Shown piece after piece: positions 2,289-58,212 of a stretch of 64,000 bases of DNA. Both the position numbers and the translations under genes were made by a program. The notes beneath the pieces were generated by a model that was not told the origin of the DNA, ran no database searches, and worked only from the letters and a program-made list of their open reading frames with translations. How positions within the stretch are numbered: position 1 is the stretch's first letter; each line of letters starts with the position of its first letter. The stretch comes from an uncultured Bacteroides sp. (GTDB lineage Bacteria; Bacteroidota; Bacteroidia; Bacteroidales; Muribaculaceae). The stretch lies in the NCBI GenBank assembly GCA_964489495.1, contig CAZAZA010000003.1, positions 1,660 to 65,659 of the forward strand, given 5' to 3'.

Positions 2289-3950
2289 ATGGAATGGTTA
2301 CAAAGCATTTTTTGCGAGCATTCGCCGCTTCAAGCCGTAGTGCTTCTGTCGGTGATCATAGCTGTCGGACTCGGACTCGGCAAAATACACGTATTCGGCA
2401 TATCGCTTGGCGTAACATGGGTGTTCTTTGCCGGAATACTCGCCGGACATCTGGGATTTTCGGTCGACTCCGGCATGCTCAACTATGCCGAAAGCTTCGG
2501 CCTTGTTCTATTTGTATATGAACTGGGACTCAAAGTCGGCCCGGGATTCTTCAGTTCGTTCCGCGAAGGAGGAATAAAACTCAATCTGCTCGGACTCGGA
2601 GTAGTGGTATCCGGCACTCTTCTGGCCATAGCGTTGAGTGCTGCCACAGGCATATCGATGGCCGACATGGTTGGTATAATCAGCGGGGCCACCACCAACA
2701 CTCCTTCGCTCGGAGCCGCCCAGCAGGCCCTGCAGCAACTCGGAATATCGGCAAACGGAGCAGCCCTAAGCTGCGCCGTCACCTATCCGCTGGGAGTGGT
2801 GGGTGTGATACTCGCAATGATATTTGTACGCAAATGTTTTGTACGTCCGGGCGACATAACCGACCATTCGCACAAAGATGATGACGAAACATTCATAGCA
2901 GGATTTCAGGTACACAATCCCGCAGTATTCGGTAAATCAATACGCGAAGCCGCCGAACTGATACAGCCCAAATTTGTAATATCGCGTCTCTGGCGCGACG
3001 GGCGAGTGAGCATACCCACATCTGAGATATGTCTGCGTGAAAACGACCGCCTGCTCGTAATCACCACCGAACACGACCTGCCAGCCCTGACCGTGCTTTT
3101 CGGCCAGCAGGAAAATAAAGACTGGAATACAGGCGACATCGACTGGGATGCCATAGACAGCACCCTTATATCTAAACATATAATAGTGAGCCGTCCGGAA
3201 ATCAACGGGCGCCGTCTCGGATCATTGCGCCTGCGCAACAATTATGGCATTAACATAAGCCGGGTGCTACGCAGCGGAGTCAAGCTTCTGGCCACTCCTC
3301 AATTGGTACTACAACTCGGTGACCGACTCACCGTAGTGGGAGAGGCCAAATCGATTGAAAATGTCGAAAAAGTGCTCGGCAACCGTGTGAACACACTCAA
3401 AGATCCAAATCTTGCAGCAATATTCATCGGCATCGTGCTCGGACTTCTGATAGGCTCGATACCAATCACTGTTCCCGGGATATCGGTTCCGGTAAAGCTC
3501 GGACTTGCCGGCGGACCCATAGTGGTGGGCATACTGATAGGACGCTTCGGCCCGCAATTCCATATGGTAACATACACCACGCGCAGTGCCAACCTCATGT
3601 TGCGCGGCATAGGGCTGTCGCTCTACCTTGCCTGTCTCGGGCTGGATGCAGGCGCGCATTTTCTCGACACAATCCTGCGTGCCGACGGCCTGTTGTGGAT
3701 AGGGGTGGGATTCATAATAACCGTGGTTCCGGTAGTAATAATGGCACTTGTGTCTATGAGATGGACGCGACTCGATTTCGGTTCGTCATGCGGTATGCTG
3801 TGCGGCGCCATGGCCAACCCCATGGCTCTGACTTATGCCAACGACACCATCCCCGGCGACAATCCTGCCGTAAGCTATGCCACGGTTTACCCCCTGGCAA
3901 TGTTTTCGAGAGTGGTCATAGCCCAGCTTCTCGTTCTCACTTTTCTTTGA
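2289..3950 (+). CDS. AAE-family (YidE/YbjL-like) putative transporter with two central TrkA-C/RCK_C domains
   Basis: 553 aa. Hydrophobic N- and C-terminal halves flank two soluble repeats (..FVISRLWRDGRVSIPTSEICLRENDRLLVI.. and ..INISRVLRSGVKLLATPQLVLQLGDRLTVVG..), the typical architecture of this family. Confidence 0.8.
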   Translation: MEWLQSIFCEHSPLQAVVLLSVIIAVGLGLGKIHVFGISLGVTWVFFAGILAGHLGFSVDSGMLNYAESFGLVLFVYELGLKVGPGFFSSFREGGIKLNLLGLGVVVSGTLLAIALSAATGISMADMVGIISGATTNTPSLGAAQQALQQLGISANGAALSCAVTYPLGVVGVILAMIFVRKCFVRPGDITDHSHKDDDETFIAGFQVHNPAVFGKSIREAAELIQPKFVISRLWRDGRVSIPTSEICLRENDRLLVITTEHDLPALTVLFGQQENKDWNTGDIDWDAIDSTLISKHIIVSRPEINGRRLGSLRLRNNYGINISRVLRSGVKLLATPQLVLQLGDRLTVVGEAKSIENVEKVLGNRVNTLKDPNLAAIFIGIVLGLLIGSIPITVPGISVPVKLGLAGGPIVVGILIGRFGPQFHMVTYTTRSANLMLRGIGLSLYLACLGLDAGAHFLDTILRADGLLWIGVGFIITVVPVVIMALVSMRWTRLDFGSSCGMLCGAMANPMALTYANDTIPGDNPAVSYATVYPLAMFSRVVIAQLLVLTFL

Positions 3951-4686
3951 TAAGACCCGACAGCACCCGTTCCACATAAGGGGTGGGCTTAAGCTTATAG
4001 GCACGCGACAGATAATCTTCTGCTAATTGTTTTCCGTCGCTCCTAACCGCATAATAGTTGCCGAGATACAGCAAAGCATCGCAACAGTCAGGATGAATGT
4101 CGATCACTCGTCGATAAGTGTCGACAGCCTTGTCTATATCGTCCTGCAGAAGGTATCCCCTCGCAAGCAACAACAGGTAGCGTTCATTGTCAGGAAGACC
4201 TTCAAGCATCTTTCTGCTGTATGTCACAATCTGCGGGCCGTTGCAACGAAACGAATAGTAATCGAGTAAATAACCGTCGACAACACGCTCCATCCAGGCA
4301 TGTGAATCATTGACCGTGTGCAGAAACTTCTCGTACAGGTCTGTACTCCCACATTCAAAACTCACATTTCTTACATATGTAAGTAAGGAATCGAACGCTA
4401 TGCGGTTTTGCAAAGCCCCGTTGAAAAATTCCATCTGGGCCACGCTTCTGCCGCGCATTCCCTCAGACACTATGGCACGGGCATAAGTATCGGCTACGTT
4501 TGGCCGACGGTCAATCATCAGCTGATACATGGCGGCCGCACTCGCCCATTCACGGTTGTTGAAAAAACGTCCGGCCTTAGCCTCAAGAACAGCATACGGA
4601 GTGTCGGATGCTTCTGTCGACACTGTTGTCGACATAGTTGTCAACACAGCTGTCAATAGTATTGTCATAAGTCGTTTAGCATACAT
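3937..4686 (-). CDS. Secreted TPR-repeat protein (hypothetical)
   Basis: 249 aa. N-terminal signal-like hydrophobic segment. TPR-like helices (AAAMYQLMIDRRPNVADTY.., YLLLLARGYLLQDDIDKAVDTYRRVIDIHPD.., LLYLGNYY..). ATG start verified. The 3' end overlaps the convergent transporter gene by 14 bp. Confidence 0.6.
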   Translation of the reverse strand: MYAKRLMTILLTAVLTTMSTTVSTEASDTPYAVLEAKAGRFFNNREWASAAAMYQLMIDRRPNVADTYARAIVSEGMRGRSVAQMEFFNGALQNRIAFDSLLTYVRNVSFECGSTDLYEKFLHTVNDSHAWMERVVDGYLLDYYSFRCNGPQIVTYSRKMLEGLPDNERYLLLLARGYLLQDDIDKAVDTYRRVIDIHPDCCDALLYLGNYYAVRSDGKQLAEDYLSRAYKLKPTPYVERVLSGLIKEK

Positions 4687-5089
4687 ACTTATATAACGTA
4701 AAAATAGGCATTTGGATGTATATAACTATGTCTAAAACCATGTATACAACTTATCAACATATTGTCGATAAAACACATAATATATTATAAACCAAAAATA
4801 TATAATGTCTATAACATGTCAAATCAAATGTCTATATACCAAAACATACCCACACCGTCAAAACAGTGCCGTGCAGACATTTTTCAGCAGCATCACTACT
4901 GTGTCGGAAACCTGTCGACAACATTGAGTAAACCGCGACTAAAACTATCGACAACTTTATTTGGAAAACAGAGCACTTAAACCGTATATACAACTTTCTG
5001 AGACACCGGCCGATAGAGTGATGTAAGTTATGAATGGGTTTTAAACCCTTTTTTACGCGTTTATTGACTGTTGAATGAAGCTTTTTTAT

Positions 5090-5097
5090 TAACTTTG
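5090..5097 (+). promoter_or_regulatory. Candidate -7 box TAACTTTG inside the long AT-rich spacer, about 215 nt upstream of nadA
   Basis: Exact TAnnTTTG match, identical to the boxes found just upstream of several other genes in this window. No better box lies closer to nadA. Confidence 0.4.
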
Positions 5098-5314
5098 CAC
5101 GTTATTAACAGAGTGTTGATAAACATCCTAATTCTCTAACAAGCAATAGCTAACATTGTCGATAAACTGTTGGATAACGTCATCTGTACAACAATAACCA
5201 TAAATAACAAGAAAACGTTGCTGAAGTTTTAATAACAATCGACAGACATTATTATTACTTGGGGAGATTTTTGAAAAAATTTTTATTTCTTGAAAATTAA
5301 AAAAACAATAAAAA

Positions 5315-6259
5315 ATGGCTGTTGAAAACTGTCGAGAAAATGATTTGCGCGACGAGGTGATCAGGCTTAAGAAAGAGCGTGGGGCCGTGATTATGGCACA
5401 TTATTACCAGACAGGCGACATTCAGGATATAGCCGACTATGTCGGCGACTCGCTTGCCCTGGCCCAGATTGCGACACGTATCGATGCTCCTGTCATAGTG
5501 ATGTGCGGGGTGCATTTCATGGGTGAGACTGCCAAGATTCTTTGTCCGGAAAAAACCGTGCTCGTTCCTGACACAAATGCCGGTTGCTCTCTCGCCGACA
5601 GCTGTCCTGCCGATAAGTTTGCCGAATTTGTGGCCGCCCATCCCGGCTACACCGTAGTCAGCTATGTCAACACTTCAGCTGCCGTAAAGGCTCTCACGGA
5701 TATTGTGGTGACCTCGGGCAATGCCCGCAAAGTTGTCGACAGTCTGCCTGCAGATGAAAAGATAATTTTCGGGCCGGACCGAAACCTTGGCGAATATATC
5801 AACAGTTCCACAGGGCGCCATATGCTTCTCTGGGACGGAGCCTGCCACGTGCACGAACGGTTCTCGACCGAGAAAGTCGTAGAACTGAAAAAAATCTATC
5901 CGGATGCCGAAGTGCTCGTACACCCGGAATGTCAGAAACCACTGCAGCTGCTGGCCGACCGGCTCGGCTCGACCGCCGTGTTGCTGCGCCATGCCAAAGA
6001 AAGCAATGCCAAGCGGTTTATCGTGGCTACCGAGAGCGGTATACTGCACAAGATGCGTATCGAATGCCCTGAAAAGGAATTCATACCTGCGCCGCCTGCC
6101 GATAGCACCTGTGCCTGCAACGATTGCTCGTTCATGAAGCTTAACACTATGGAGAAACTCCGCAATTGTCTGCGCGACCTCAGTCCGGAAATCACAGTCG
6201 ATCCGGATATTGCCGAACGCGCACGTCGTCCTATTGACCGCATGCTCGCACTCAGTTAA
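5315..6259 (+). CDS. nadA: Quinolinate synthase
   Basis: 314 aa. IMAHYYQ..DIQDIADYVGDSLALAQ...VMCGVHFMGETAKIL and later VHPEC..ATE.GI motifs are characteristic of NadA. Confidence 0.93.
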   Translation: MAVENCRENDLRDEVIRLKKERGAVIMAHYYQTGDIQDIADYVGDSLALAQIATRIDAPVIVMCGVHFMGETAKILCPEKTVLVPDTNAGCSLADSCPADKFAEFVAAHPGYTVVSYVNTSAAVKALTDIVVTSGNARKVVDSLPADEKIIFGPDRNLGEYINSSTGRHMLLWDGACHVHERFSTEKVVELKKIYPDAEVLVHPECQKPLQLLADRLGSTAVLLRHAKESNAKRFIVATESGILHKMRIECPEKEFIPAPPADSTCACNDCSFMKLNTMEKLRNCLRDLSPEITVDPDIAERARRPIDRMLALS

Positions 6260-16726: not shown

Positions 16727-18112
16727 CTATTCGGTGAAGCTTATCGTAGAATTTGCAGCAGGTCGACCCGGATCAGCCTGCGTAACAAGCGGTTGTCCTG
16801 TCTCACCGTTTGAGCGCAGGTTCTCTACAAGGCGGGTATCGCGCTTGTAAGTGGGGTTGTGTTCAAGGGCCTCGATCACTTCGTCGTTATCCATCTGTTC
16901 GGGATGCAGTATGACGAAATGACGGCTTTCGTCAGTGCCGTAATCCTCGCGCATCCTTATCTGGTTAGGATCGGGAGTGACGTTTGCCTGTTCTTTTGGC
17001 TTAACCACTTGCCCTTCGTTTTTGCCGCTTTGCACATTTGTACGTGTCTGCGAGTTAATCAGTGGAGGAGCAGGGGTCATCGTACCATCCTCCCGGTTGT
17101 TCGAAGGGTCGAATCCGGCGGCAAGTATGGTGATTTTAACCTGGTCGCCAAGTGATTCGTCAAATCCAAGACCCCATATCACGTCGACATCCGACGATAT
17201 TCCCTTGACAAAGTCGGTGAGTTCGTCGGCTTCGGCCATCTTGAATTCGTCGCTTGCCTGTCGCGAATAGAATATATGGAACAGGAGGCGTTTCGAACCG
17301 AAAATGTCGCGGTTTTTCAGCAGGGGCGAATTTAGAGCGTCCTCGATAGCTTTAGTCACGCGGTGCTCGCCCTCGCCGAATCCACACGATATAATGGCGG
17401 CCCCGCCGTTTCGCAGCGTTGTGTCTACGTCGTTGAAATCGACATTCATATAGCCGTCGTCGGTGATAAGCTCGGATATGGAGCTGGCAGCTACTGAAAG
17501 AGTGTCATCGGCTTTGCCGAATGCATTGAGGAAGTTCAGGTCGCCGTAGATTTCCGACAGACGTTGGTTGTTGATGACCAGCAGCGCGTCGACATGCTTG
17601 GCAAGCTCGTCGGCGCCTCCGTAGGCTTTGAGAATCTTTTTCTCGCCTTCGAAGCCAAACGGGATGGTGACAATACCTATGGTGAGGATGCCTTTTTCTT
17701 TTGCGACGCGGGCAATCACCGGCGACGCGCCTGTACCGGTGCCACCACCCATCCCGGCGGTGATAAATACCATCTTGGTGTGGTCGTCAAAGATAGCTTC
17801 GATTTTGTCTATATTGTCCTCGGCAGCTTTTCGGGCTACTTCGGGCTTGTTGCCTGCTCCGAGACCGTTGCCGATCTCTACTTTCGTAGGCACATCGGAG
17901 TTTTTAAGTGCCTGTCTGTCGGTGTTGAGCACGACAAACGACACATTTTTTATGCCTTGCGCATACATGTGGTTGACGGCGTTGTTGCCGCCTCCACCCA
18001 CACCGATCACCTTGATGATGGGATGCTCTTCTGCATTTTCATCGCACGGCGATGAGTTGAACTGTTGTCCGAACTGGTCGGTGTCTATATCGTGGATATT
18101 GTCCATTTCCAT
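16727..18112 (-). CDS. ftsZ: Cell division protein FtsZ
   Basis: 461 aa. IKVIGVGGGGNNAVNHM and GMGGGTGTGASPVIA tubulin signature motifs. Confidence 0.97.
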   Translation of the reverse strand: MEMDNIHDIDTDQFGQQFNSSPCDENAEEHPIIKVIGVGGGGNNAVNHMYAQGIKNVSFVVLNTDRQALKNSDVPTKVEIGNGLGAGNKPEVARKAAEDNIDKIEAIFDDHTKMVFITAGMGGGTGTGASPVIARVAKEKGILTIGIVTIPFGFEGEKKILKAYGGADELAKHVDALLVINNQRLSEIYGDLNFLNAFGKADDTLSVAASSISELITDDGYMNVDFNDVDTTLRNGGAAIISCGFGEGEHRVTKAIEDALNSPLLKNRDIFGSKRLLFHIFYSRQASDEFKMAEADELTDFVKGISSDVDVIWGLGFDESLGDQVKITILAAGFDPSNNREDGTMTPAPPLINSQTRTNVQSGKNEGQVVKPKEQANVTPDPNQIRMREDYGTDESRHFVILHPEQMDNDEVIEALEHNPTYKRDTRLVENLRSNGETGQPLVTQADPGRPAANSTISFTE

Positions 18113-19504: not shown

Positions 19505-20359
19505 TTAATTAGGAGATGTCTCGACATTGAGTATAGGTAAAGCCTCGTCGTAAGCCGACTGCGGCAGCGTGTCGACAGGCAGCCGATGGTCGGTTTTGAC
19601 TTTGTCGCTCCTCGATGCCACCACTTGCCCGGCCCATTTCACTGCTATTGTATCATAATAATTCCATCCCTTGTAAGGCATGACGCGCTTATAGAAACGG
19701 GCGAGACGGTCAAATTTGTCGTCGACAGCGTCAAGACTGCCGAACTTGATTACCTGACCGCGTATGTCGGGTATGAGATATATGTTCATACTGTCGCGCA
19801 CCTCTATCATCGATATGAGGTCGTTCCACGGTGAGTGATTTTCTATATAGTCGGCAAGCGGGAGCATAGCGACCGGATCTAAGCCTGTCGATGTGAAGTT
19901 GCCTTTGATTACCGGAACATCCATATGATAACGGGCGTCGGCGCCGATACGTTTTCCCGATCGGTTGATATAGTACGATTTCGTCCCGTCGAAGATACGT
20001 GCAGCCGGAACAAGCGGGCATACTGTCACTTTAACGCTGTCGTTTGTGAGGATCACGGCCTGAACACTTTCTATTTTGTCGCTTGCCATAAGTCTGGCCT
20101 CGACGCTGTCGAGCGGGAAATTATAGAGAAGACGTCCGGTGGCTGACGAATAAAGGTGTCCGAGATCACGTTTAAGTTCCTCTGTCCTGACAAACCCGAG
20201 GTTGAGGGGGTCGTCAAGTTCTATCTCCATGCCACGGCATTGGCGCGTGGCGGAGAGACGCGAGGTAAAGCTCAGCGCAACCAACAGGTAGCCTGCCATG
20301 ACAACTACGAGCGATATTCGCAGTATCTTTTTAAGCATCGGTGTGGACGGCGTTTGCAT
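19505..20359 (-). CDS. ftsQ: Cell division protein FtsQ (single TM helix plus POTRA-like domain)
   Basis: 284 aa. N-terminal TM helix ILRISLVVVMAGYLLVALSF. Position between murC and ftsA. Its start overlaps the murC 3' end by 29 bp. Confidence 0.8.
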   Translation of the reverse strand: MQTPSTPMLKKILRISLVVVMAGYLLVALSFTSRLSATRQCRGMEIELDDPLNLGFVRTEELKRDLGHLYSSATGRLLYNFPLDSVEARLMASDKIESVQAVILTNDSVKVTVCPLVPAARIFDGTKSYYINRSGKRIGADARYHMDVPVIKGNFTSTGLDPVAMLPLADYIENHSPWNDLISMIEVRDSMNIYLIPDIRGQVIKFGSLDAVDDKFDRLARFYKRVMPYKGWNYYDTIAVKWAGQVVASRSDKVKTDHRLPVDTLPQSAYDEALPILNVETSPN

Positions 20360-27009: not shown

Positions 27010-28467
27010 CTACTGTTTCAGACATTCCATCACCACCTCGCGGTCGTCGAAATGGTGCTTGACACCGGCTATTTCCTGATAGTCTTCGTGGCCTTTGCCT
27101 GCGACAAGCACCACGTCGCCCCGTGAGGCCAGTGCTATGGCTGTGCGTATCGCCTCGCGGCGGTCGGTTATGAAGAGGGTGGTTGCAGCCTGCTCAGGTG
27201 TCAGGCCTGCTTTCATGTCCTCGATAATGGCCTGCGGGTCTTCGTCGCGGGGATTGTCGGATGTGAGTATAAGCCGGTCGCTGCGCATGGCCGCGTCACG
27301 GGCCATTATGGGGCGTTTACCGTGGTCGCGGTTGCCTCCCGCGCCTACAACGGTTATGATATGCCCTTCCGACCCCATCACTTCGCGTATGGCCGTGAGC
27401 ACGTTGACTACGGCATCGGGTGTGTGGGCGTAGTCGACCACGGCGGTCACGCCGCGCTCGGGCGAGCGGAAGGTCTGGAAGCGTCCGGCCACCGGTACCA
27501 GGCGGCTCATATCTACAAGTATTTCCGCCGGATCCCATCCGAGCAGGCACGATACCCCGTAGACGGCGGTGAGGTTGTAGGCATTGTAACGGCCTGTGAA
27601 CATCACTTCCACTTCCTGTCCGTTGAGTTGGAGAAGTGTGCCGTCGAGACGGCTTTCCACCACTTTGCAGCGGAAGTCCGCGTAGTCGCGCAGGGAGTAG
27701 TAGAACCGACGGGCGTGGGTGTTCTGCAGCATTACCTCGCCCACCTTGTCATCACGGTTGCTGAGGGCAAAGGCGCTTTCGGGCAGATTGTCGAAAAATG
27801 ATTTCTTGGCCTGGAGGTAGGCTTCGACCGTGCGGTGGTAGTCGAGGTGGTCGCGGGTGAGGTTGGTGAACACTCCGCCGGTGAAATGCAGTCCGGCTAT
27901 GCGGTGCTGGTGAGCGGCATGCGAGCTTACCTCCATGGCGGCATACGAGCAGCCTGCTGCCACCATACGTGCAAGCAGGGCGTTGATGGTCAGCGGGTCG
28001 GGTGTTGTCTGGGTTGTGGGCACCGCCTCGTTGTCGATATAGTTGCAAACGGTCGACAGCAGACCTGCCTTGTAGCCGCGCAGACGAGCCATCTCATAGA
28101 TGAGGGTGGCCGTGGTGGTCTTGCCGTTGGTGCCTGTCACGCCCACGAGCTTGAGTTTGCGCGACGGGTTGTCCCACCACTGTGAGGCAAGGAATCCGAG
28201 GGCTACGGCTGAGTTTTCCACTTTAATATATGTAACCGTTGAATCGAGGCGTTCGGGAAGTTCCTCGCACACTATGGCTGCGGCTCCCGCAAGTGTCACA
28301 AGCGGTATGAACTTGTGGGCGTCGACCGAGACTCCGCGCACAGCCACGAAGAGCGCGCCCGGCGTTATACGCCTTGAGTCGCATTCCACGGCTGTGATGT
28401 CGCGTTCGCGTTCGCCGATTATCTCTTTGACCTGGATGGCCGCGAGTAGGTGGGTTAGTTTTTTCAT
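27010..28467 (-). CDS. murE: UDP-N-acetylmuramoyl-L-alanyl-D-glutamate--2,6-diaminopimelate ligase
   Basis: 485 aa. VTGTNGKTTTATLI and DNPR motif (LTSDNPRDEDP). Position in the dcw cluster. Confidence 0.94.
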   Translation of the reverse strand: MKKLTHLLAAIQVKEIIGERERDITAVECDSRRITPGALFVAVRGVSVDAHKFIPLVTLAGAAAIVCEELPERLDSTVTYIKVENSAVALGFLASQWWDNPSRKLKLVGVTGTNGKTTTATLIYEMARLRGYKAGLLSTVCNYIDNEAVPTTQTTPDPLTINALLARMVAAGCSYAAMEVSSHAAHQHRIAGLHFTGGVFTNLTRDHLDYHRTVEAYLQAKKSFFDNLPESAFALSNRDDKVGEVMLQNTHARRFYYSLRDYADFRCKVVESRLDGTLLQLNGQEVEVMFTGRYNAYNLTAVYGVSCLLGWDPAEILVDMSRLVPVAGRFQTFRSPERGVTAVVDYAHTPDAVVNVLTAIREVMGSEGHIITVVGAGGNRDHGKRPIMARDAAMRSDRLILTSDNPRDEDPQAIIEDMKAGLTPEQAATTLFITDRREAIRTAIALASRGDVVLVAGKGHEDYQEIAGVKHHFDDREVVMECLKQ

Positions 28468-28505: not shown

Positions 28506-30602
28506 TCAATGTGAGAGATGCAGAGTTACTGACGTGCCGGCTCTGGCGTGGGTGCCCGGCGCGGGGGATTGCGTGCTGACATATCCCGAACCGGAGAAGT
28601 CGATGTTGTATCCGGCACTTTCAAGCAGGTCTATTGCCTCGCGTATGTCGAGTCCCGAGACATCGGGAACACCCGACTGCGTGGCCTGTGGCTGGCGGAT
28701 GTGGCGTGGGGCAACCGTCACACCGAGTTGTTCGCGCAGCCGGTTGTTGCGTCCCTCGCGGGTCGAGGCATAGAATACGGGCGACTGGGGCAGGCTGAGG
28801 GCGTGCTCGTCGTGTGCGCGGTAGTCGGGCGTGTTGTCGAGGAGTCCGCGTGCGTCGAAGCTTTCAGCAATGTTTTTGAACACCTGGCCGCTTGTCGACG
28901 GCGCTCCGAACGCATTCTGTGTGGGATGGCTGACAATCACTATGCACGAATACTTAGGCTTGTCGTACGGGAAGAATCCGCAGAATGCCAGACGTTTGTT
29001 GTCGCTATATCCTTGTTTTGGCACGTAAATGCGGGCTGTGCCCGTCTTGCCGGCTATTTTCACACGGCTGTTGCGCAGCGATTTGGCAGTGCCTCCCTTG
29101 GTGTACACCACGTCATGAAGCATCTTGCGCAGTATGGCCGCGTTGGCCGGCGAGCATACCGACTCCCGCACGCATGTCACGGGGAAAACCGTATCGCCCA
29201 ACTCGCCGTGGAGCTCCCGCACGAGGCGTGGCTTTACAAAACGTCCGTCGTTGGCAACGGCGTTATACAGGGCGAGTGTGTAGATAGGCGGTATGGCCGT
29301 GCCGTAGCCGTAAGCCTGGCTGGCAAGCATCAGCCTCTTCTCATGCAGTTTGCCGCGCATCGGATACATGACGGCGCATCCTTCGCGTTCAAATCCTATG
29401 TTGAACCGGTCGAGGAATCCCGTGCGGCGTACCGCTGTCTGGAAAGCGTCGGGATCGTCGCCGTATCCGTCGAATATAATGCGGCTGATGCCGATGTTTG
29501 ATGACTCGGGAATTACCTGCGACACGCGCTTGGTCGCGCTCTTGTGGCTGTCCTGCACGGTGAACCCCTTGCCGAGCGACGCGGTCTGCACGATGGCCGA
29601 CGTGTCGCGCACCACACCGTTTTCAAGAGCCACAAGCATCGACAGCAACTTTACCACCGAGCCCGGTTCGTAGGGTAGCACGGCGTGGTTCTGCGACTGG
29701 ACTATGTGTCCCAGCGTGTCGATCTCGATATTCGTTATGGCCTTTATGTCGCCGGTGGCCACTTCCATCACCACGCACGAGGCCCATTCGGGACGGCAGT
29801 GTTCCACCATTCTTGTGAGCTGGTGTTCGACTATATCCTGCATGGCTATGTCGATGGTTGTTGTCACGTCGTAGCCGCGTTTGGGAGGTACGTTCACCCA
29901 GTTGGTTATGCCCCGGTTCAGAGCTTCGCGGCGTGCGTAGCCGGGGCGTCCGTAGAGCAGCGAGTCGAGGGTGCGTTCCAGTCCGCTGCGGCCTATGCGG
30001 CGGCGGTCTTTGTCTGTTTGTCCGACGGTGCCTATGCTCTTGCGGGCCATGTCGCCGTAAGGCTTGAAACGGATGAGGCGTTCTTCGAGTTTCCATCCGG
30101 TCTTGTCGGAGTTGTGAATCTTGAAGAAGGGCCATTCGCGTATGCGCTGCGACTGGTAGTACGTGATATTTGTGAGTATCGGGTAGTTGCGGCGGTAGAC
30201 GCTCGACGGGCCTTTAATCAGGTGTTTGCGCCACTGTGCGCGGGTGCGGTGCGGGAAATACGTGGCCAGCGAGTCGCTCAGGCTGTCGATGGCGAGCATG
30301 TAGCGTTCGCGTGCGAACCGCTGCACCTCGTAGTCGATGCGTAGGTTGTATTTGAGCATGTTGGTGGCTATGATTGTGCCGTCGCATGCCAGCAGGTCGC
30401 CTCGGTCGGGCGCTATGGTGTCGACCACGGCCATCATCGAGTCGGCTCTGTGGTTCCAGTGCTGGGCCATTACCACTGTATTGTCGACGAGTTTCCATGA
30501 TATGCCTCCCGCGAGCGCGAGAATGCACGCGATAATAACGGCGTAGCGCAGCAGAATCTCTTTGCGGCCGCCTGATTTTTTGTCTCTTCTGTTTCCGGCC
30601 AT
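28506..30602 (-). CDS. ftsI: Class B penicillin-binding protein (divisome transpeptidase FtsI/PBP3) with C-terminal PASTA domain
   Basis: 698 aa. N-terminal TM helix. Transpeptidase motifs (..PGSVVKLLSM.. SxxK, ..KIAGKTGTA.. KTG). C-terminal VPDVSGLDIREAIDLLESAGYNIDFSGSGYVSTQSPAPG is PASTA-like. The ATG lies 2 nt after the upstream stop (TGAccATG). Confidence 0.92.
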   Translation of the reverse strand: MAGNRRDKKSGGRKEILLRYAVIIACILALAGGISWKLVDNTVVMAQHWNHRADSMMAVVDTIAPDRGDLLACDGTIIATNMLKYNLRIDYEVQRFARERYMLAIDSLSDSLATYFPHRTRAQWRKHLIKGPSSVYRRNYPILTNITYYQSQRIREWPFFKIHNSDKTGWKLEERLIRFKPYGDMARKSIGTVGQTDKDRRRIGRSGLERTLDSLLYGRPGYARREALNRGITNWVNVPPKRGYDVTTTIDIAMQDIVEHQLTRMVEHCRPEWASCVVMEVATGDIKAITNIEIDTLGHIVQSQNHAVLPYEPGSVVKLLSMLVALENGVVRDTSAIVQTASLGKGFTVQDSHKSATKRVSQVIPESSNIGISRIIFDGYGDDPDAFQTAVRRTGFLDRFNIGFEREGCAVMYPMRGKLHEKRLMLASQAYGYGTAIPPIYTLALYNAVANDGRFVKPRLVRELHGELGDTVFPVTCVRESVCSPANAAILRKMLHDVVYTKGGTAKSLRNSRVKIAGKTGTARIYVPKQGYSDNKRLAFCGFFPYDKPKYSCIVIVSHPTQNAFGAPSTSGQVFKNIAESFDARGLLDNTPDYRAHDEHALSLPQSPVFYASTREGRNNRLREQLGVTVAPRHIRQPQATQSGVPDVSGLDIREAIDLLESAGYNIDFSGSGYVSTQSPAPGTHARAGTSVTLHLSH

Positions 30603-31564
30603 GGTCAGTCGTTTTCTTTTGTGACATGATATGGCGGACGCTCGCGCACGCTCAGTCCGAGGTGCAGCGTGTCGATACGCCTGGACATCGACGATTCACG
30701 GGTGTTGCTCATATAGTTTTCGCGCTCGTTTGCTTTTTCGGCCTCGATGATCTCGAGTTGCTTTTCGAGTCGCCGCGTGGTGAGTTTCTGGTCTCGCACC
30801 ATATATCTGCTCGATATGTAGGCTTCGAGTTTCCATCCGGTCTTGTCGGAGTTGTGAATCTTGAAGAAGGGCCATTCGCGTATGCGCTGCGACTGGTAGT
30901 ACGTGATATTTGTGAGTATCGGGTAGTTGCGGCGGTAGACGCTCGACGGGCCTTTAATCAGGTGTTTGCGCCACTGTGCGCGGGTGCGGTGCGGGAAATA
31001 CGTGGCCAGCGAGTCGCTCAGGCTGTCGATGGCGAGCATGTAGCGTTCGCGTGCGAACCGCTGCACCTCGTAGTCGATGCGTAGGTTGTATTTGAGCATG
31101 TTGGTGGCTATGATTGTGCCGTCGCATGCCAGCAGGTCGCCTCGGTCGGGCGCTATGGTGTCGACCACGGCCATCATCGAGTCGGCTCTGTGGTTCCAGT
31201 GCTGGGCCATTACCACTGTATTGTCGACGAGTTTCCATGATATGCCTCCCGCGAGCGCGAGAATGCACGCGATAATAACGGCGTAGCGCAGCAGAATCTC
31301 TTTGCGGCCGCCTGATTTTTTGTCTCTTCTGTTTCCGGCCATGGTCAGTCGTTTTCTTTTGTGACATGATATGGCGGACGCTCGCGCACGCTCAGTCCGA
31401 GGTGCAGCGTGTCGATACGCCTGGACATCGACGATTCACGGGTGTTGCTCATATAGTTTTCGCGCTCGTTTGCTTTTTCGGCCTCGATGATCTCGAGTTG
31501 CTTTTCGAGTCGCCGCGTGGTGAGTTTCTGGTCTCGCACCATATATCTGCTCGATATGTAGGCT
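30083..31564. repeat. Perfect tandem duplication, 2 x 740 bp (copy 1 30083-30822, copy 2 30823-31562, 2-bp CT junction microhomology)
   Basis: The sequence from cttcgagtttccatccgg.. onward repeats with a period of exactly 740. Three pairs of ORFs in different frames are identical in the track (30214..30627 = 30954..31367; 30337..30546 = 31077..31286; first 172 aa of 28506..30602 = first 172 aa of 30605..31342). Confidence 0.95.
30605..31342 (-). CDS. Duplication-junction chimeric ORF: FtsI residues 1-172 fused in frame to FtsL residues 50-122
   Basis: 245 aa. The N-terminal 172 aa are identical to ftsI (MAGNRRDKK...DKTGWKLE). The C-terminal 73 aa are identical to the end of ftsL (AYISSRYMVRDQKL...HVTKEND). 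It has the same TGAccATG coupling to upstream ftsL, and its stop has the same coupling to downstream ftsI. Confidence 0.85.
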   Translation of the reverse strand: MAGNRRDKKSGGRKEILLRYAVIIACILALAGGISWKLVDNTVVMAQHWNHRADSMMAVVDTIAPDRGDLLACDGTIIATNMLKYNLRIDYEVQRFARERYMLAIDSLSDSLATYFPHRTRAQWRKHLIKGPSSVYRRNYPILTNITYYQSQRIREWPFFKIHNSDKTGWKLEAYISSRYMVRDQKLTTRRLEKQLEIIEAEKANERENYMSNTRESSMSRRIDTLHLGLSVRERPPYHVTKEND

Positions 31565-31713
31565 ATGGCCATGAACATCAGGCAGGTCACTATCAGCCAG
31601 TGACGCAGGAAGAAATCGACGTTGAACCACCGTCCGTAGGCTGCGTCGGAGAGTATCGTGAGCGGCGATCGGCGTTTCGGTGTGTCTGTTTGTCTGTTAT
31701 TGCGGTCTTGCAT
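31345..31713 (-). CDS. ftsL: FtsL-like small bitopic division protein
   Basis: 122 aa. Single TM helix (WLIVTCLMFMAIAYI) followed by a coiled-coil-like segment (LEKQLEIIEAEKANEREN). Conserved position between rsmH and ftsI. Confidence 0.7.
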   Translation of the reverse strand: MQDRNNRQTDTPKRRSPLTILSDAAYGRWFNVDFFLRHWLIVTCLMFMAIAYISSRYMVRDQKLTTRRLEKQLEIIEAEKANERENYMSNTRESSMSRRIDTLHLGLSVRERPPYHVTKEND

Positions 31714-31738: not shown

Positions 31739-32653
31739 TTAAATTTTTTCGGCAGCCCTGAGCTTGGCGCTGCGGCTTCGCGGGTTGCGCTCTACTTCGC
31801 TTGCCGAGGGGGTGACCGGTTTTCCTGTCAGCGTACACCACGGTGAGTCGCTGCGCCCGTAAAGGTCTTTTTCGATAGTGCCGTGGATGTTGCCCGAGCG
31901 CATGAGGTTTTTCACCATACGGTCTTCGAGCGACTGGTAGGTGATCACAGCCAGGCGTCCTCCTGTCCGCAACGCGCCGGCGCACTGTCCGAGGAAGTCG
32001 CTGAGCGCTCCCATTTCGTCGTTGACCTCGATGCGCAGAGCCTGAAACAGAGGGGCGAGTTCTTTTTTCTCGCGTCCACGGCTCAGCAACGGGCCTACGG
32101 CTGCAGTGAGGTCGGCGATGGTGGCGAACCGGTGTGTGTCGCGGGCTTTCACTATTGCTGCGGCGATTCGCGGGGCGGCTTTCAGTTCACCATACAGCCT
32201 GAATATTTCGGTCAGCTTGGTGAGGTCGGCCGTGTTCAGCAGGTCGGCGGCTGTTAGAGTCATTCCACGGTTCATGCGCATGTCGAGAGCTCCTTCGGGC
32301 GAGCGGAACGAGAAGCCTCGGTCGCCGTCGTCGAAGTGGTGGAACGATACCCCGAGGTCTGCAAGTATGCCGTCGACTTTGCCCTCGATGTCGTAAAAAC
32401 GAAGGAAGTCGCTCATATACCGGAAATTGGCGTGTATGGGCGTGATGTGTGGGTGCGGTTCGAAGCGCTTTATGGCATCGCTGTCCTGATCGAACGCAAA
32501 AAGCATTCCGCCGTCACCGAGACGGTCGGCTATGGCGCGTGAATGGCCTCCGCCGCCCAAAGTGGCGTCGACATATATGCCGTCGGGCTTCACGTCAAGA
32601 AGCCCGAGTGTCTCGGGCAGCAAGGCCGGTATGTGATAAACTTCCTGATTCAT
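31739..32653 (-). CDS. rsmH: 16S rRNA (cytosine1402-N4)-methyltransferase
   Basis: 304 aa. YHIPALLPETL..DGIYVDATLGGGGHS.. and ..LADLGVSFHHFD.. motifs. First gene of the dcw cluster here. Confidence 0.95.
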   Translation of the reverse strand: MNQEVYHIPALLPETLGLLDVKPDGIYVDATLGGGGHSRAIADRLGDGGMLFAFDQDSDAIKRFEPHPHITPIHANFRYMSDFLRFYDIEGKVDGILADLGVSFHHFDDGDRGFSFRSPEGALDMRMNRGMTLTAADLLNTADLTKLTEIFRLYGELKAAPRIAAAIVKARDTHRFATIADLTAAVGPLLSRGREKKELAPLFQALRIEVNDEMGALSDFLGQCAGALRTGGRLAVITYQSLEDRMVKNLMRSGNIHGTIEKDLYGRSDSPWCTLTGKPVTPSASEVERNPRSRSAKLRAAEKI

Positions 32654-32845
32654 TGGTAGTTGCGGTCAGGGGCATATGCCTCTGATTTGAGGGGATAAAA
32701 TTAGTCATTTTTGCTGAAAATTTACATATCCAAACAGCACTTTTTTGAACAGGTTCGCCAAAAAAATGCACTCGCCCAACCAATAATCCTGTAATCAGTA
32801 AGTTACCGTTCTAATTTGCAATTGCAAATCAATCGGGGCTGCATA

Positions 32846-34666
32846 TTACTCGATCCTCACCGACGGAGAGATTTGTCCGAAGTCATTGTCGAGTATGTCG
32901 ACATTGCGCGTGCGCAGCAGACGGAAGTTGAATGTGTTGGAATGGAATGCCGGATAGTCGTGGTTAAAAACTATTTTGTTTCCCGAAAAGCGCAGTCCGT
33001 CAACCGATTTGGCAAACAGGAGGGGTGCGTCGAATGTCACGAATTCGTTGTCTTCGATCACTATGCCCGAATGAAAATATTTCTGTTGGGCGGCGAGATT
33101 GTGTATCTCGGGATAGATCGATATGACGGCTTCCGTAAACTGGAACATGTTGGTCAGTGAGTTGACGAAGCGGTTGTGGCGTATTGTCACGTCGCGGCAC
33201 GCCCCGGTCTCAAACCATCCCATGCAGTCGCCGCACAGCAGCACGGCTGTGCCCGATGTGTGGTCGAAGAGATTGCGCTCCACCACGGTGCGTCGCGGCG
33301 TGCTGAACAGCGACCCGCGAGCCCTGTTGTTGCGTATGACGTTGTCGGCAAAGTAGACTTCCGGACTCCAGGTCAGGTTTTCAAATCCGTAAGCCCCGGT
33401 TTCAGTGATGCCGGCGGGTAGCGGAGCAGTGAAGGTGATTTCAAATTCTTTGCATCCGGCCGTTGTAGGAGTGTCGGACGGAATGATTGATTCTATCACA
33501 TACACGCCGTCGATTGTTTCCATTGTCTCTGAGGATATTATCTGTACGGAGTCGCCCGGTTCGCCCCATTTGAATCCATAGCTCTGACCGTGCATATATC
33601 GGGCGCGGACGGTGCGTTCTGATTGTCTGGCTGTCAGTTTCAGGTATGTGCCGTGTACGTTTATGGCATCATCCATCATTCCCTCGTACAGTCCGCCTGT
33701 CGAGCGTATCAGTCCACGGCATCCCGAGAAGTGGGTGGCGTCGGCCTGGGTGGTGAAATATCTCGGGTCGTCAGTCCCTCGGAGTGCCACCTTGAACCCT
33801 TCGAGATTCACGCTGTCGCATAATTGGGCGAGCAGACCCATTCCTTCGGCATAATGTACGGTCACATCGCGCAGAGTGGTGGAGACGCATTCGTCGAGAA
33901 ACACGCCGGGAGCGGGTCTGCCCCATGTGCGTAATGCCACTACTGTTCCCGGTTTCAGCCTGTCGTCATGCCATTTGGGAGCGAAAAATGCAGATTTACC
34001 TCTGGCTATGACACTGTCGACCGGGCACCATAGGTCGCTTGTCCGATAGACAAGGCGACGGGTGTCGTGTTCAAACGCTATCCCGTTCATCGGAGTCATC
34101 TGCCATCCTTCGCCTTTCGACACAAAAGCTCCTTTTCCGTTAACCTCCGCTTTGACCCAGGGAGCTGTCCTGAAGGTGATTCCGTCGGCATTGTTGTCGA
34201 CTATCTCCACTTGGGTGATATGCGGAGTGGCGAAGTCGATGCTGAATCCCGAGAGTGTGCATCCCCGCGATCCTGTCACCGCTACCGGAAGCATGCGTCC
34301 GTGAAACATGAATTCCGCACCTTCGCCGGCAATCGTCACGCTGTCCCAGTTCTCAATCGCAATTCCCACGTTTTTAGGGTTTTCCTGATCGTGGTTCGAA
34401 ATATAGTAAGTGCGGCTTATGCTTCCTTTGGGATAGAAGTCATATCGTCCCGGGGCGAATTTCAATGTGACGGCATGTCCCGCATGGCGTGATTTTATGT
34501 CGGCGAGAGCCCGGGCCACACGGTCGGAAACATTTTTCCCACGGTCAGGTTTGATGCCGTATTCTGCGGCCATGTCGACCACAGTCTGTGCTGATGCCCC
34601 GAGTGATCCGCAGCAGCATGCCGCCGCGATGGCCAGGGCGAATAACTTTCTCATGTCAGATTTCAT
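32846..34666 (-). CDS. Secreted right-handed beta-helix glycoside hydrolase, GH110-like alpha-1,3-galactosidase (probable)
   Basis: 606 aa. Signal peptide. The N-terminal pattern ..GRYDFYP...YYISNHDQENPKNVGI.. and repeated beta-helix segments are recalled from GH110 enzymes. Not verified by search. Confidence 0.6.
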   Translation of the reverse strand: MKSDMRKLFALAIAAACCCGSLGASAQTVVDMAAEYGIKPDRGKNVSDRVARALADIKSRHAGHAVTLKFAPGRYDFYPKGSISRTYYISNHDQENPKNVGIAIENWDSVTIAGEGAEFMFHGRMLPVAVTGSRGCTLSGFSIDFATPHITQVEIVDNNADGITFRTAPWVKAEVNGKGAFVSKGEGWQMTPMNGIAFEHDTRRLVYRTSDLWCPVDSVIARGKSAFFAPKWHDDRLKPGTVVALRTWGRPAPGVFLDECVSTTLRDVTVHYAEGMGLLAQLCDSVNLEGFKVALRGTDDPRYFTTQADATHFSGCRGLIRSTGGLYEGMMDDAINVHGTYLKLTARQSERTVRARYMHGQSYGFKWGEPGDSVQIISSETMETIDGVYVIESIIPSDTPTTAGCKEFEITFTAPLPAGITETGAYGFENLTWSPEVYFADNVIRNNRARGSLFSTPRRTVVERNLFDHTSGTAVLLCGDCMGWFETGACRDVTIRHNRFVNSLTNMFQFTEAVISIYPEIHNLAAQQKYFHSGIVIEDNEFVTFDAPLLFAKSVDGLRFSGNKIVFNHDYPAFHSNTFNFRLLRTRNVDILDNDFGQISPSVRIE

Positions 34667-54949: not shown

Positions 54950-56569
54950 TTAGGAGTTGCTCTCGTCGTTTGCCGGTTTGTCGGGGCGTGTCTTCACCTT
55001 GCCTCGGCGTTCGCGCATGAACACTTCGCCCGACGGGGGGAGTGTGGGAGCCGAGGGCGTCCCGATGCGTTCGAGCAGGCGGGGATTGCGGCGCGGTTTG
55101 TCGGCGCGTGTGCGGTCGTTGTCACGGTCGTCCCACCGGTCACGGCCACCGTTGTCGTGGCGGTCACGCGAGTCCTTGCCTTTGAAATCGCGGTTTCTGA
55201 AATCTTTTCCCTTGAAGTCGCGGCGCGGTTTGTCGTGACGCAGGCGTTCGTCCGAATGGTCGTCCCAGTGACCGCGTCCCTTGCCTTTGGGACGGTCGCT
55301 GCGTCGTTCCTGTCGACGGTCGTGCTTGCACCGGATATTTGTTTCGCTGTCGTCATCTTCGTCGTCGCGGGTGCGCCGCAGCGTGCCTCCGGAGGCACGG
55401 AACTGCTTGTAGTCGCCTTCGAATATCACGTATTCGCGGAGCTGGCATTCCAGGTTGGCGTTGTAGAGGGTTTCTTTGTATGACGGGGCGAGGCCGATTT
55501 TGTCGAAATATTCCTCGCGGTAGCCGATTATCCATGCATGGTAGCCACGGAACACGTTCTTGAGCCGGTTGCCTATGAGCTCGTAGAATTTGTCCATGTC
55601 ATCCACGCTGATGCGTTCGCCGTAGGGCGGGTTGGTGACGATCACGCCGGGAGTGCCTCCCTCGGGGGCCTCTTCCCAGCGGGCTATCGGTCGCACCTGC
55701 AGGTCGACATAGCGTGCCATTCCCGCGCTTTTGAGGTTGCGGGTGGCAATGTCGATGGCCAGTGGAGATATGTCGGCTCCGTAGATTTTGCCTTCGAACG
55801 GGCGTTCGGAGCTTTCGTCGTTGTAGATTTCGTCGAACAGCTCGGCATCGAAGTCGGGCCATTTCTCAAACGCGAAGCTCTGGCGGAACACGCCGGGCAT
55901 CGTGCCTGTGGCGATAAGGGCGGCTTCGACAAGGAATGTGCCCGAGCCGCACATGGGGTCGACCAGGGGCTGGTCGCCGCGCCAGCCGCTTTTCAGCAGT
56001 ATGCCTGCGGCAAGCACTTCGTTGATCGGGGCCTCGGTCTGTGCCACGCGCCAGCCGCGTTTGTGCAGCGACTCGCCCGACGAGTCGAGCGACAGCGTCA
56101 CCTGGTTGCCCGATATGTGTACGTTGATTATCACGTCGGCATCCTGCAGGCGCACTTTGGGACGGCGACCCAGGCCTTCGCGGTCCTGGAACCAGTCCAC
56201 AATGCCGTCTTTGACACGGTATGTGACGTAGCGTGAGTGGGTGAAGTCTTCGGAATTGACCACCGAGTCGATCGCAAACGAGCTGTCGAGGTCGAGGTGC
56301 CGGCTCCAGTCATATTCCTTCACTCGGTCGTATAATGTGTCGGGGTCGGAGGCGTAGAACTTGTAAATGGGTTTAAGTATCCTTAACGCGGTGCGGCAGC
56401 ACATGTTAGCCCTGTAAAGGGTCTCGAGGGTGCCGTCGAACGACACCATTCGGCGTCCGGGTTCCACGTTCAGGGCTCCGATGCCGCGTAGTTCTTCGGC
56501 CAGGACGTCTTCGAGTCCTTGAAAGGTCTTTGCGACCATTTCAAACGTTTGAGGGTTCGTCTCCATCAT
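54950..56569 (-). CDS. THUMP-domain class I SAM-dependent RNA methyltransferase (RlmK/L-like) with a 142-aa Arg/Asp/Lys-rich C-terminal tail
   Basis: The ORF opens with TTG at 56590. ATG ATG at 56569/56566 is more likely. Motifs: ..MCGSGTFLVEA.., ..YGADISP.., ..IVTNPPYGERI... The tail starts at ..RRTRDDEDDD... Confidence 0.8.
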   Translation of the reverse strand: MMETNPQTFEMVAKTFQGLEDVLAEELRGIGALNVEPGRRMVSFDGTLETLYRANMCCRTALRILKPIYKFYASDPDTLYDRVKEYDWSRHLDLDSSFAIDSVVNSEDFTHSRYVTYRVKDGIVDWFQDREGLGRRPKVRLQDADVIINVHISGNQVTLSLDSSGESLHKRGWRVAQTEAPINEVLAAGILLKSGWRGDQPLVDPMCGSGTFLVEAALIATGTMPGVFRQSFAFEKWPDFDAELFDEIYNDESSERPFEGKIYGADISPLAIDIATRNLKSAGMARYVDLQVRPIARWEEAPEGGTPGVIVTNPPYGERISVDDMDKFYELIGNRLKNVFRGYHAWIIGYREEYFDKIGLAPSYKETLYNANLECQLREYVIFEGDYKQFRASGGTLRRTRDDEDDDSETNIRCKHDRRQERRSDRPKGKGRGHWDDHSDERLRHDKPRRDFKGKDFRNRDFKGKDSRDRHDNGGRDRWDDRDNDRTRADKPRRNPRLLERIGTPSAPTLPPSGEVFMRERRGKVKTRPDKPANDESNS

Positions 56570-56661
56570 GTGAAAAAAGCTTTGGTGCAAAATTACTCAC
56601 AAATCTCCAAACACAAAAAATCTCAGCCAATAATCTTTTTGAAGTTTCATCCGTTATTGTC

Positions 56662-56755
56662 CCCCACCACATTTTTTGTAGGGGCGTACGGTCGTGCGCC
56701 CGGCCCGAGCGGCATGCCGCAACCGGGGTGAATATGGTGTTAAATAATTGGGAAT
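56662..56755 (+). repeat. 94-nt repeat, left copy (contains a REP-like GTAG-hairpin at 56678-56701)
   Basis: 88 of 94 positions are identical to 58104-58197 in the same orientation. The first 40 nt are identical. Confidence 0.9.
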
Positions 56756-56759
56756 AATC

Positions 56760-57704
56760 TTATTTGCGCATCAACATTTCTGCAAATTCTTGGGCTTCAC
56801 GTTCTTTCTCAGGATCTTTGTTGCCGTAATTGACATTTTCAATGAAGATGTCTTTTTTACCATGAAGTAGGATGTGGCCTATCTCATGGTATAGCGTATT
56901 CCAGAATGCCGATTCGTCATCAAATACTTTGGCAAGTTGAATACATGGAATACCGGATATGTATCTGGCACAACCCTTGACAGGTGCCGTTGAAAGCGTT
57001 TCTGTGAAAATGAGCTTTACTCCGGCATCACCTAACATTGATTCCAATAGTTCAATGTGATTGTCAGCCTTGGATTTTCTAATTTCGGAAATCTCAGTTA
57101 GAATGCTACGAAGCAGCTTTGCATTATGCCGTTTCGCTATATGTATTTTTCCTGCTTGGATTTCGCCTTGACGTAGCCAGGCGGAAAGAGCATACGGGTC
57201 ACAGGCATTGGCAAGGGTTATGCTGAATGCTACACGAAGCCGTTGGTTGAGATAGAAGTCTTCCCAACCCTTAGGTGAACTGACAGCAAAGAATGTGCAA
57301 AGAATGTCGACAATGTTTTTTGTCTCTCCTTGTGTGTCGTTTATTCCAGCAAACCATCCGAGATTTGCTATTTCGTCGTATGGAAATTTTTTAGCCCAAA
57401 TTAGGCCTTCCTTGAACGTTTTTTCTCTCTTTTTGCGAGCTATAAATTCATCATAACTTTTCTGATGGCGAAGCCACATATGGGCCGGTATCTTCGTTAC
57501 TAATTCAAACGCGACAGCCATGTCCGGTGTTATGGAACTTTTGCCTTTTAAGACTGCAATAATTGTTTTTTCGGGTTTAGAAACCCGTGTGGCAAATTCT
57601 TTCACCCCCATTCCCATCTCTAAAAGTTTCTCTTCAAGAGTTTCGCCTGGATGATATATTACCGGTAACTTTGCCGGATTTAAAAATGGTCTTGTCTGTG
57701 CCAT
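56760..57704 (-). CDS. higA: HigA-like antitoxin: XRE-type HTH fused to an ImmA/IrrE (COG2856) zinc-metallopeptidase domain
   Basis: The ORF extends to 57749. The ATG at 57704 is 4 nt after the higB stop. HTH region GMGVKEFATRVSKPEKTIIAVLKGKSSITPDMAVAF. HExxH motif LYHEIGHILLH near the C-terminus. Confidence 0.7.
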   Translation of the reverse strand: MAQTRPFLNPAKLPVIYHPGETLEEKLLEMGMGVKEFATRVSKPEKTIIAVLKGKSSITPDMAVAFELVTKIPAHMWLRHQKSYDEFIARKKREKTFKEGLIWAKKFPYDEIANLGWFAGINDTQGETKNIVDILCTFFAVSSPKGWEDFYLNQRLRVAFSITLANACDPYALSAWLRQGEIQAGKIHIAKRHNAKLLRSILTEISEIRKSKADNHIELLESMLGDAGVKLIFTETLSTAPVKGCARYISGIPCIQLAKVFDDESAFWNTLYHEIGHILLHGKKDIFIENVNYGNKDPEKEREAQEFAEMLMRK

Positions 57705-57708
57705 ATCT

Positions 57709-57960
57709 TTATTTGCCGTGATAGTTTGTAATTTCAATGACTTCGACACCTTTAATTTCCAACCAGATATATCTACCGGAGGAATCGGTTGGAATTGGGT
57801 CTTCGTGTGGTTCGAATATCAAGCGGTAAGGATGGTCAAGATCACAAGCAGATAATCTTTTGAGAAATAGTTTAGTTCTCAGTGCGCCAAGTTCTCTTGT
57901 CAATTTGGAAGGATTGTCCAGTAATTTTTCGAGTTTTTTATTTTGGAACGAAATATTCAC
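57709..57960 (-). CDS. higB: HigB/killer-protein-family toxin, short form (possibly internally deleted)
   Basis: 83 aa with a GTG start. MNISFQNKKLEKL... and ...DLDHPYRLIFEP....IEITNYHGK match the two ends of HigB-like toxins. The middle segment seems to be missing. Confidence 0.6.
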   Translation of the reverse strand: MNISFQNKKLEKLLDNPSKLTRELGALRTKLFLKRLSACDLDHPYRLIFEPHEDPIPTDSSGRYIWLEIKGVEVIEITNYHGK

Positions 57961-58046: not shown

Positions 58047-58103
58047 GTTTATGAATGCAATATGTGCGACATGGCAGGATATAGGAAATCATTTATCCGT
58101 GTT

Positions 58104-58197
58104 CCCCACCACATTTTTTGTAGGGGCGTACGGTCGTGCGCCCTGTCCGAGCGGCATGCCACGACCGGGGTGAATATGGTGGTAAATGATTGGGAAT
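58104..58197 (+). repeat. 94-nt repeat, right copy (contains a REP-like GTAG-hairpin at 58120-58143)
   Basis: See the left copy at 56662-56755. Confidence 0.9.
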
Positions 58198-58212
58198 TAC
58201 TTTATTTGCTCC

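Follow-up and report, generated by a model that had tools for sequence, protein, structure and literature searches.

The 64,000-nucleotide window analyzed in this study, taken from contig CAZAZA010000003.1 of an uncultured Bacteroides sp. in the family Muribaculaceae (assembly GCA_964489495.1, contig positions 1,660 to 65,659), possesses a perfect tandem duplication of 740 bp in its division and cell wall (dcw) operon, at the boundary between the genes ftsL and ftsI. Positions 30083-30822 of the window are identical to positions 30823-31562 (0/740 mismatches), and the two copies are adjacent, head to tail, in the same orientation and without a spacer, at a period of 740. Both ftsL and ftsI are intact, and a hybrid open reading frame (ORF) of 245 aa, in which the beginning of ftsI is fused in frame to the end of ftsL, is located between them. 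We propose, with a probability of roughly 0.55, that the repeat represents a real duplication junction in the sequenced DNA, possibly in a subpopulation only.

Structure of the Duplication

The repeat had been recognized in a preliminary description of this DNA, together with a 2-bp CT as the only sequence shared by its breakpoints, and both observations were borne out. Bases 740 nt apart agree over 742 consecutive positions (30083-30824), which correspond to the 740-bp unit plus the CT common to the breakpoints. This microhomology lies at 30823-30824, and it is also present at 30083-30084 and 31563-31564. The novel junction reads CGATATGTAGG|CTTCGAGTTTCCA on the plus strand (30811-30834, with the breakpoint at 30822|30823), and the wild-type boundaries of the unit are ...GGATGAGGCGTT|CTTCGAG... 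and ...GATATGTAGG|CTATGGCC.... The outer boundaries are not flanked by a long repeat (insertion sequence, repetitive extragenic palindrome or rrn, in an R-D-R-D-R layout) and have a few bases in common only. According to our calculation, a microhomology of at least 2 bp has a chance probability of ~0.16; a perfect match of 740 nt cannot arise by chance, while a 2-bp microhomology can.

No Ns were found in the 64-kb window, nor was any other long perfect repeat or inverted repeat, and an Rfam scan of the whole window returned no RNA family. Tandem Repeats Finder was silent on the repeat, but its longest period is 500, and this silence is no evidence against a repeat of 740 bp.

Read on the minus strand, the unit consists of two thirds of ftsL codon 51, codons 52-122, the stop codon, the bases cc, ftsI codons 1-173 and one base of codon 174. 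The earlier count of 73 ftsL and 172 ftsI codons was off by one in each case and is corrected to 72 and 173 whole codons. In the promoter-proximal copy (30823-31562, minus strand), the 3' part of the intact ftsL is followed by a TGAccATG stop/start junction and by codons 1-173 of the hybrid ORF. In the promoter-distal copy (30083-30822, minus strand), the ftsL-derived end of the hybrid ORF is followed by another TGAccATG junction and by codons 1-173 of the intact ftsI. Both junctions were read directly from the sequence; one lies between ftsL and the hybrid ORF (31340-31347, minus strand), and the other, identical to it, lies between the hybrid ORF and ftsI (30600-30607, minus strand).

The intact ftsL (31345-31713, minus strand) encodes a Bacteroidetes FtsL_2 protein of 122 aa (PF19579, E = 1.4e-11), with a hydrophobic transmembrane (TM) core at approximately residues 35-53 according to hydropathy, and exactly the same protein was also found in many public metagenome contigs. 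The intact ftsI (28506-30602, minus strand) encodes a class B penicillin-binding protein (PBP) of 698 aa with PBP_dimer (63-230), Transpeptidase (275-579) and PASTA (645-697) domains, and hydropathy places its TM helix at approximately residues 16-38. The gene content given in the preliminary description, namely the FtsL_2 protein, the class B PBP with these three domains and the TGAccATG junction, was thus confirmed. Both genes have remained intact because one breakpoint lies in ftsL and the other in the adjacent ftsI. The operon as assembled reads rsmH - ftsL - (ftsI'1-173::'ftsL51-122) - ftsI - murE, and no complete gene is present twice.

Hybrid Open Reading Frame

The hybrid ORF (30605-31342, minus strand) is the only new product of the duplication. 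It encodes FtsI residues 1-173 fused in frame to FtsL residues 51-122, with ftsI codon 174 joined to ftsL codon 51 and GCC as the codon at the fusion (hybrid codon 174). The unit length leaves a remainder of 2 on division by three, and the frame offset from ftsL to ftsI leaves the same remainder; the fusion is in frame because these two remainders are equal, for which the chance was one in three. Pfam assigned PBP_dimer to residues 63-156 and FtsL_2 to residues 175-243 of the hybrid. The protein is composed of the FtsI cytoplasmic tail, the FtsI TM helix (approximately residues 16-38), the first half of the pedestal/PBP_dimer domain and the FtsL periplasmic helix, so that the FtsI anchor is retained and the FtsL TM is lost. 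The pedestal domain is cut in its middle (PF03717 covers residues 63-230, and the FtsI part ends at 173), so this fragment probably does not fold. A single-sequence AlphaFold2 model of the hybrid was uninformative (mean predicted local distance difference test, pLDDT, 40; predicted template modeling score, pTM, 0.24), and only the FtsL-derived helix, at approximately residues 190-210, reached a pLDDT of 71-81.

In a collection of 15 billion proteins, the hybrid was represented by a single NCBI record (P0001), located on one contig of 82,532 bp. Out of 144 candidates, a homologue search with the hybrid yielded the identical NCBI protein alone; this search was insensitive, since it missed FtsI proteins with an identical N-terminus, and near-identical hybrids could have escaped it.

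Previous study of the Pseudomonas FtsWIQLB structure showed that contact with FtsW is made mainly by the FtsI TM helix, and that the helix of FtsL forms a pair with FtsB and is in contact with the pedestal and transpeptidase domains of FtsI (PMC10764723). As the hybrid combines the FtsI TM helix and the FtsL helix in one protein, it could compete for divisome partners.

Comparison with Related Genomes

The preliminary description had proposed a comparison with orthologous loci, and such a comparison gave the single-copy allele throughout. The conspecific set comprised 21 contigs from 21 different samples (Logan, ENA and JGI). All of them possess rsmH, ftsL (122 aa), ftsI (698 aa) and murE in this order. 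When the window was collapsed to a single copy, each of the 21 contigs aligned to it as one high-scoring segment pair without a gap across both breakpoints, at 98.05-99.61% identity. An exact string search did not find the junction string in the first ten conspecific loci. Each conspecific contig differs from the 740-bp unit at 2-13 sites, while the copies in the window do not differ from each other (0 sites), which indicates that the event is younger than the split from every sampled strain.

More distant relatives were covered by an FtsI scan of GTDB species representatives, which yielded 80 Muribaculaceae/Bacteroidales loci, the best FtsI being only 78% identical. No perfect repeat at the ftsL/ftsI boundary was present in any of the 90 loci compared, which include 79 other Bacteroidales species. 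In the window, rsmH ends 1136 nt before ftsI starts, or 396 nt after collapsing; across 100 loci the median of this distance is 400 nt (5th-95th percentile, 351-477). Longer intervals were observed in the loci L087 (729 nt) and L058 (657 nt), which may reflect a longer ftsL or extra material.

The 24-mer of the junction had no exact match in GTDB species representatives or JGI metagenomes; the source genome itself is evidently absent from both, so these zeros cover other records only. The duplication is private to one deposited assembly and evolutionarily instantaneous.

Origin of the Repeat

The following observations argue for a junction that was present in the sequenced DNA. Firstly, the repeat is located at least 30 kb from either end of the window, within a contig of 82.5 kb and without a flanking gap. 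Secondly, the mismatch density towards a given relative is similar to the left and to the right of the duplication (for example, 0.38% and 0.48% for the relative L002; 0.72% and 0.57% for the relative L091), so there is no sign that two strain backgrounds have been joined. Thirdly, the neighbouring genes are full length and free of frameshifts, which indicates a consensus of good quality. Two candidate explanations were rejected on these grounds: a contig-end or circularization overlap on the position of the repeat in the middle of a contig without Ns, and a chimeric join of two strains on the profile of single-nucleotide polymorphisms (SNPs).

The strongest rival is an assembly artifact, in which the organism itself would be single-copy and the second copy would derive from an unmerged 740-bp overlap at contig joining, from gap-closing or polishing, or from a spurious loop that chimeric library molecules created and the assembler traversed once too often. 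We regard this as a serious contender, though not the favored one. Besides the position, the continuous strain background and the full-length neighbouring genes, the length of the repeat speaks against it, for neither 740 nor 742 is a usual k or k-1 overlap. A de Bruijn-graph assembler passes a contig twice through a 740-bp unit only if the reads supply junction k-mers. Short-read assemblers tend to collapse repeats of this kind, not to create them, and duplications have been found hard to detect in short-read assemblies (PMC12607827).

Several points weigh against a real duplication and in favor of the artifact. The repeat is a singleton on one NCBI contig, without counterpart in the 21 conspecific contigs or in the other species, and no other indexed assembly contains the exact alleles of the source strain (FtsI, MurE, RsmH and the hybrid), so the repeat has not been sighted independently. 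Identity between the copies is perfect, and the homology at the junction is at chance level. A genome-wide study of Salmonella verified only duplication junctions of at least 11 bp, while those with less than 11 bp of microhomology failed verification (PMC3411829), and the junctions of E. coli lac amplifications, at 4-15 bp, are likewise longer than 2 bp (PMC1428787). Moreover, a hybrid with an FtsW-binding TM helix and an FtsB/FtsI-binding helix could disturb the divisome, which would count against long persistence.

Two of these points do not discriminate. Acinetobacter duplications form at junctions with 0-5 bp of identity (PMC9997567), so a microhomology of 2 bp is compatible with either origin. 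Engineered duplications of 2.6-3.3 kb were lost at ~1e-4 per generation and had half-lives of thousands of generations (PMC12607827), a time far too short for substitutions in 1.5 kb, so zero divergence does not distinguish the two origins either. By analogy, a duplication of 0.74 kb could persist for thousands of generations without a substitution. The preliminary description had taken zero divergence to mean that the event is very recent, unstable or an artifact; a recent event or an artifact is supported, whereas instability does not follow from zero divergence.

If the duplication is real, it would be a very young head-to-tail event in at least part of the sequenced DNA. We infer that it would have arisen by illegitimate, essentially homology-independent joining, either through unequal sister-strand exchange or through template switching at the 2-bp CT. 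This joining would have linked ftsI codon 174 to ftsL codon 51 while keeping both essential genes and both TGAccATG junctions, and the resulting hybrid would be a membrane-anchored protein with the FtsI TM helix, half of the pedestal domain and the FtsL periplasmic helix. The duplication would then have been carried by drift or a bottleneck rather than as a selected amplification.

Function and Selection

We lean towards a near-neutral or mildly deleterious passenger. The preliminary description held that a duplication in a core operon is not expected to be neutral, which is too strong, as ftsL and ftsI are intact and only the in-frame hybrid ORF has been added. It further suggested selection under beta-lactam or division stress, for which the unit offers no obvious substrate. 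The coding strand of the unit has no Bacteroidetes-type TAnnTTTG motif and no terminator-like site, and sigma-70-like promoter and terminator matches within the unit are no more frequent than expected by chance. As the unit contains neither a complete gene nor a recognizable promoter, its amplification would raise the dosage of nothing, and dosage amplification was rejected on this anatomy.

A selected amplification is expected to show a complete gene or promoter in the amplicon, as well as recurrence or a copy number above two. Here the amplicon holds only ftsL codons 51-122 and ftsI codons 1-173, the assembly contains two copies, and the repeat was found in none of the 21 conspecific samples. 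It is thus very unlikely that a real duplication has been kept by selection, whether because divisome activity is altered, for example during beta-lactam or division stress, by the FtsI'-'FtsL hybrid or by a changed expression of ftsI, or because the duplication is the first step of a higher amplification. In favor of selection, the fusion is in frame and topologically coherent, with the FtsI TM helix followed by periplasmic parts of both parents, and the translational junction has been duplicated intact; a related genome also retains an older, diverged partial-ftsI ORF at the same position (see below). Apart from the anatomy and the lack of recurrence, the interrupted pedestal domain and the unchanged FtsI speak against it.

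It has been reported that 12-bp in-frame duplications in E. coli ftsI (YRIN/YRIK in PBP3) lower the susceptibility to aztreonam-avibactam and cefiderocol (PMC10319620). A YRIN-type change was considered and rejected for the window: its FtsI has the length of 698 aa found in all relatives, and the duplicated part stops at codon 173, before the transpeptidase domain (275-579) is reached.

An extra ORF of 387 aa was observed between an intact ftsL (2314-2772) and an intact ftsI (3968-6097) in the locus L090 (DVKC01000018.1), which belongs to a metagenome-assembled genome of Ca. Avimuribaculum pullicola. This ORF (2774-3937) represents a stand-alone transpeptidase domain with 67% amino acid identity to FtsI residues 256-601 of the same locus, and its SxxK lysine has been lost (SVMK to SVMN). 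Judged by its sequence, it looks like an old, decaying partial ftsI duplicate, and extra ftsI-derived ORFs at the ftsL|ftsI position can evidently persist. A bolder reading would combine the two cases: the duplication in the window would be real and maintained since a dcw-expressed hybrid modulates the divisome, and the ftsL|ftsI boundary of Muribaculaceae would be a recurrent birthplace of accessory division or PBP-derived genes. We give this reading scarcely any credence.

Organization of the dcw Cluster

The gene rsmH (mraW; 31739-32653, minus strand; TIGR00006, E = 1.4e-79) is the first gene of the cluster in the window, and murE (27010-28467, minus strand) is located downstream of ftsI and matches the MurE equivalog NF001126 (E = 2.6e-176). 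Past murE, the cluster extends to position 16727 through mraY, murD, ftsW, murG, murC, an ORF in the ftsQ position, ftsA and ftsZ, a gene order also observed in L091. The window thus follows the Bacteroidetes-type gene order rsmH-ftsL-ftsI-murE-mraY-murD-ftsW-murG-murC-(ftsQ)-ftsA-ftsZ, with an FtsL_2 protein and a class B PBP.

Between murC and ftsA, the ftsQ position is occupied by an ORF of 284 aa (19505-20359, minus strand) that had no Pfam match at E <= 1e-3; its counterpart of 277 aa in L091 likewise has no Pfam match on record. Upstream of rsmH, a GLAA-B-like beta-helix gene (32846-34666) follows after only 192 nt (32654-32845), which leaves no room for mraZ at the head of the dcw cluster. 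This arrangement upstream of rsmH is shared by the 21 conspecific loci.

Other Repeats in the Window

Two further sets of imperfect repeats were observed in the window. A direct repeat of 110 nt, with copies at 56658-56767 and 58100-58209 (91% identity, spaced by 1442 nt), brackets an ORF (56760-57749) that encodes an IrrE/M78 peptidase domain. The surrounding region has a low GC content (45-47% over 56-62 kb, compared with 55-61% in the adjoining DNA), and this stretch may be a mobile or foreign segment. In addition, three imperfect repeats of 48 nt (54968-55267, 60-75% identity, spaced by 120-132 nt) occur in a stretch of 61% GC. They are located at the 3' end of an ORF (54950-56590, minus strand) for an RlmL/THUMP-type methyltransferase, past its Pfam domains, which suggests a methyltransferase with a repetitive C-terminal extension.

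Implications

If the duplication is real, it would provide a natural case of a tandem duplication that has its breakpoints in two neighbouring essential genes, breaks neither and makes a fusion gene for free, which suggests that events of this type can be tolerated even in core operons. A ready-made FtsI-FtsL hybrid would also become available for the little-studied divisome of Bacteroidales. If it is an artifact, it would serve as a warning, as the spurious protein of 245 aa (P0001) has already entered the protein databases. In either case, present knowledge of duplication mechanisms and of cell division is left unchanged.

Comparison with Known Duplications

The duplication can be compared with several known systems. 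Ca. Avimuribaculum pullicola also possesses an extra ORF derived from ftsI in the corresponding place of the operon, with an intact ftsL on one side and an intact ftsI on the other, but that ORF is old, derives from the transpeptidase domain instead of the N-terminus, contains no FtsL part and has its SxxK lysine replaced. The YRIN/YRIK duplications of E. coli are likewise tandem duplications that touch ftsI (PMC10319620); however, they alter the transpeptidase domain of the sole FtsI, whereas in the window FtsI is unchanged and its N-terminal 173 codons are repeated in a separate ORF.

False assembly duplications, which arise from unmerged contig overlaps or untrimmed circularization overlaps, resemble the present repeat in their perfectly identical adjacent copies, their arbitrary breakpoints and their restriction to a single assembly. 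Unlike the present repeat, which is gapless, 740 bp long and located in the middle of a contig, they usually lie at contig ends or gaps, with lengths that depend on k or on read overlaps.

The closest biological counterparts are RecA-independent tandem duplications with short junctions, such as those of A. baylyi cat (0-5 bp, PMC9997567) and E. coli lac (4-15 bp, PMC1428787). As in those cases, the copies are arranged head to tail without a long flanking repeat and with few shared bases at the junction, relatives carry the single-copy ancestral allele, and the copies show zero divergence. The amplicons of A. baylyi cat and E. coli lac differ in being 7-290 kb long, in having been recovered under selection and in containing the selected gene as a whole, while the present unit measures 0.74 kb, contains no whole gene, is associated with no known selection and is known from an assembly alone. 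Small tandem duplications with a minimal-homology junction are already well known, as are the assembly errors that resemble them.

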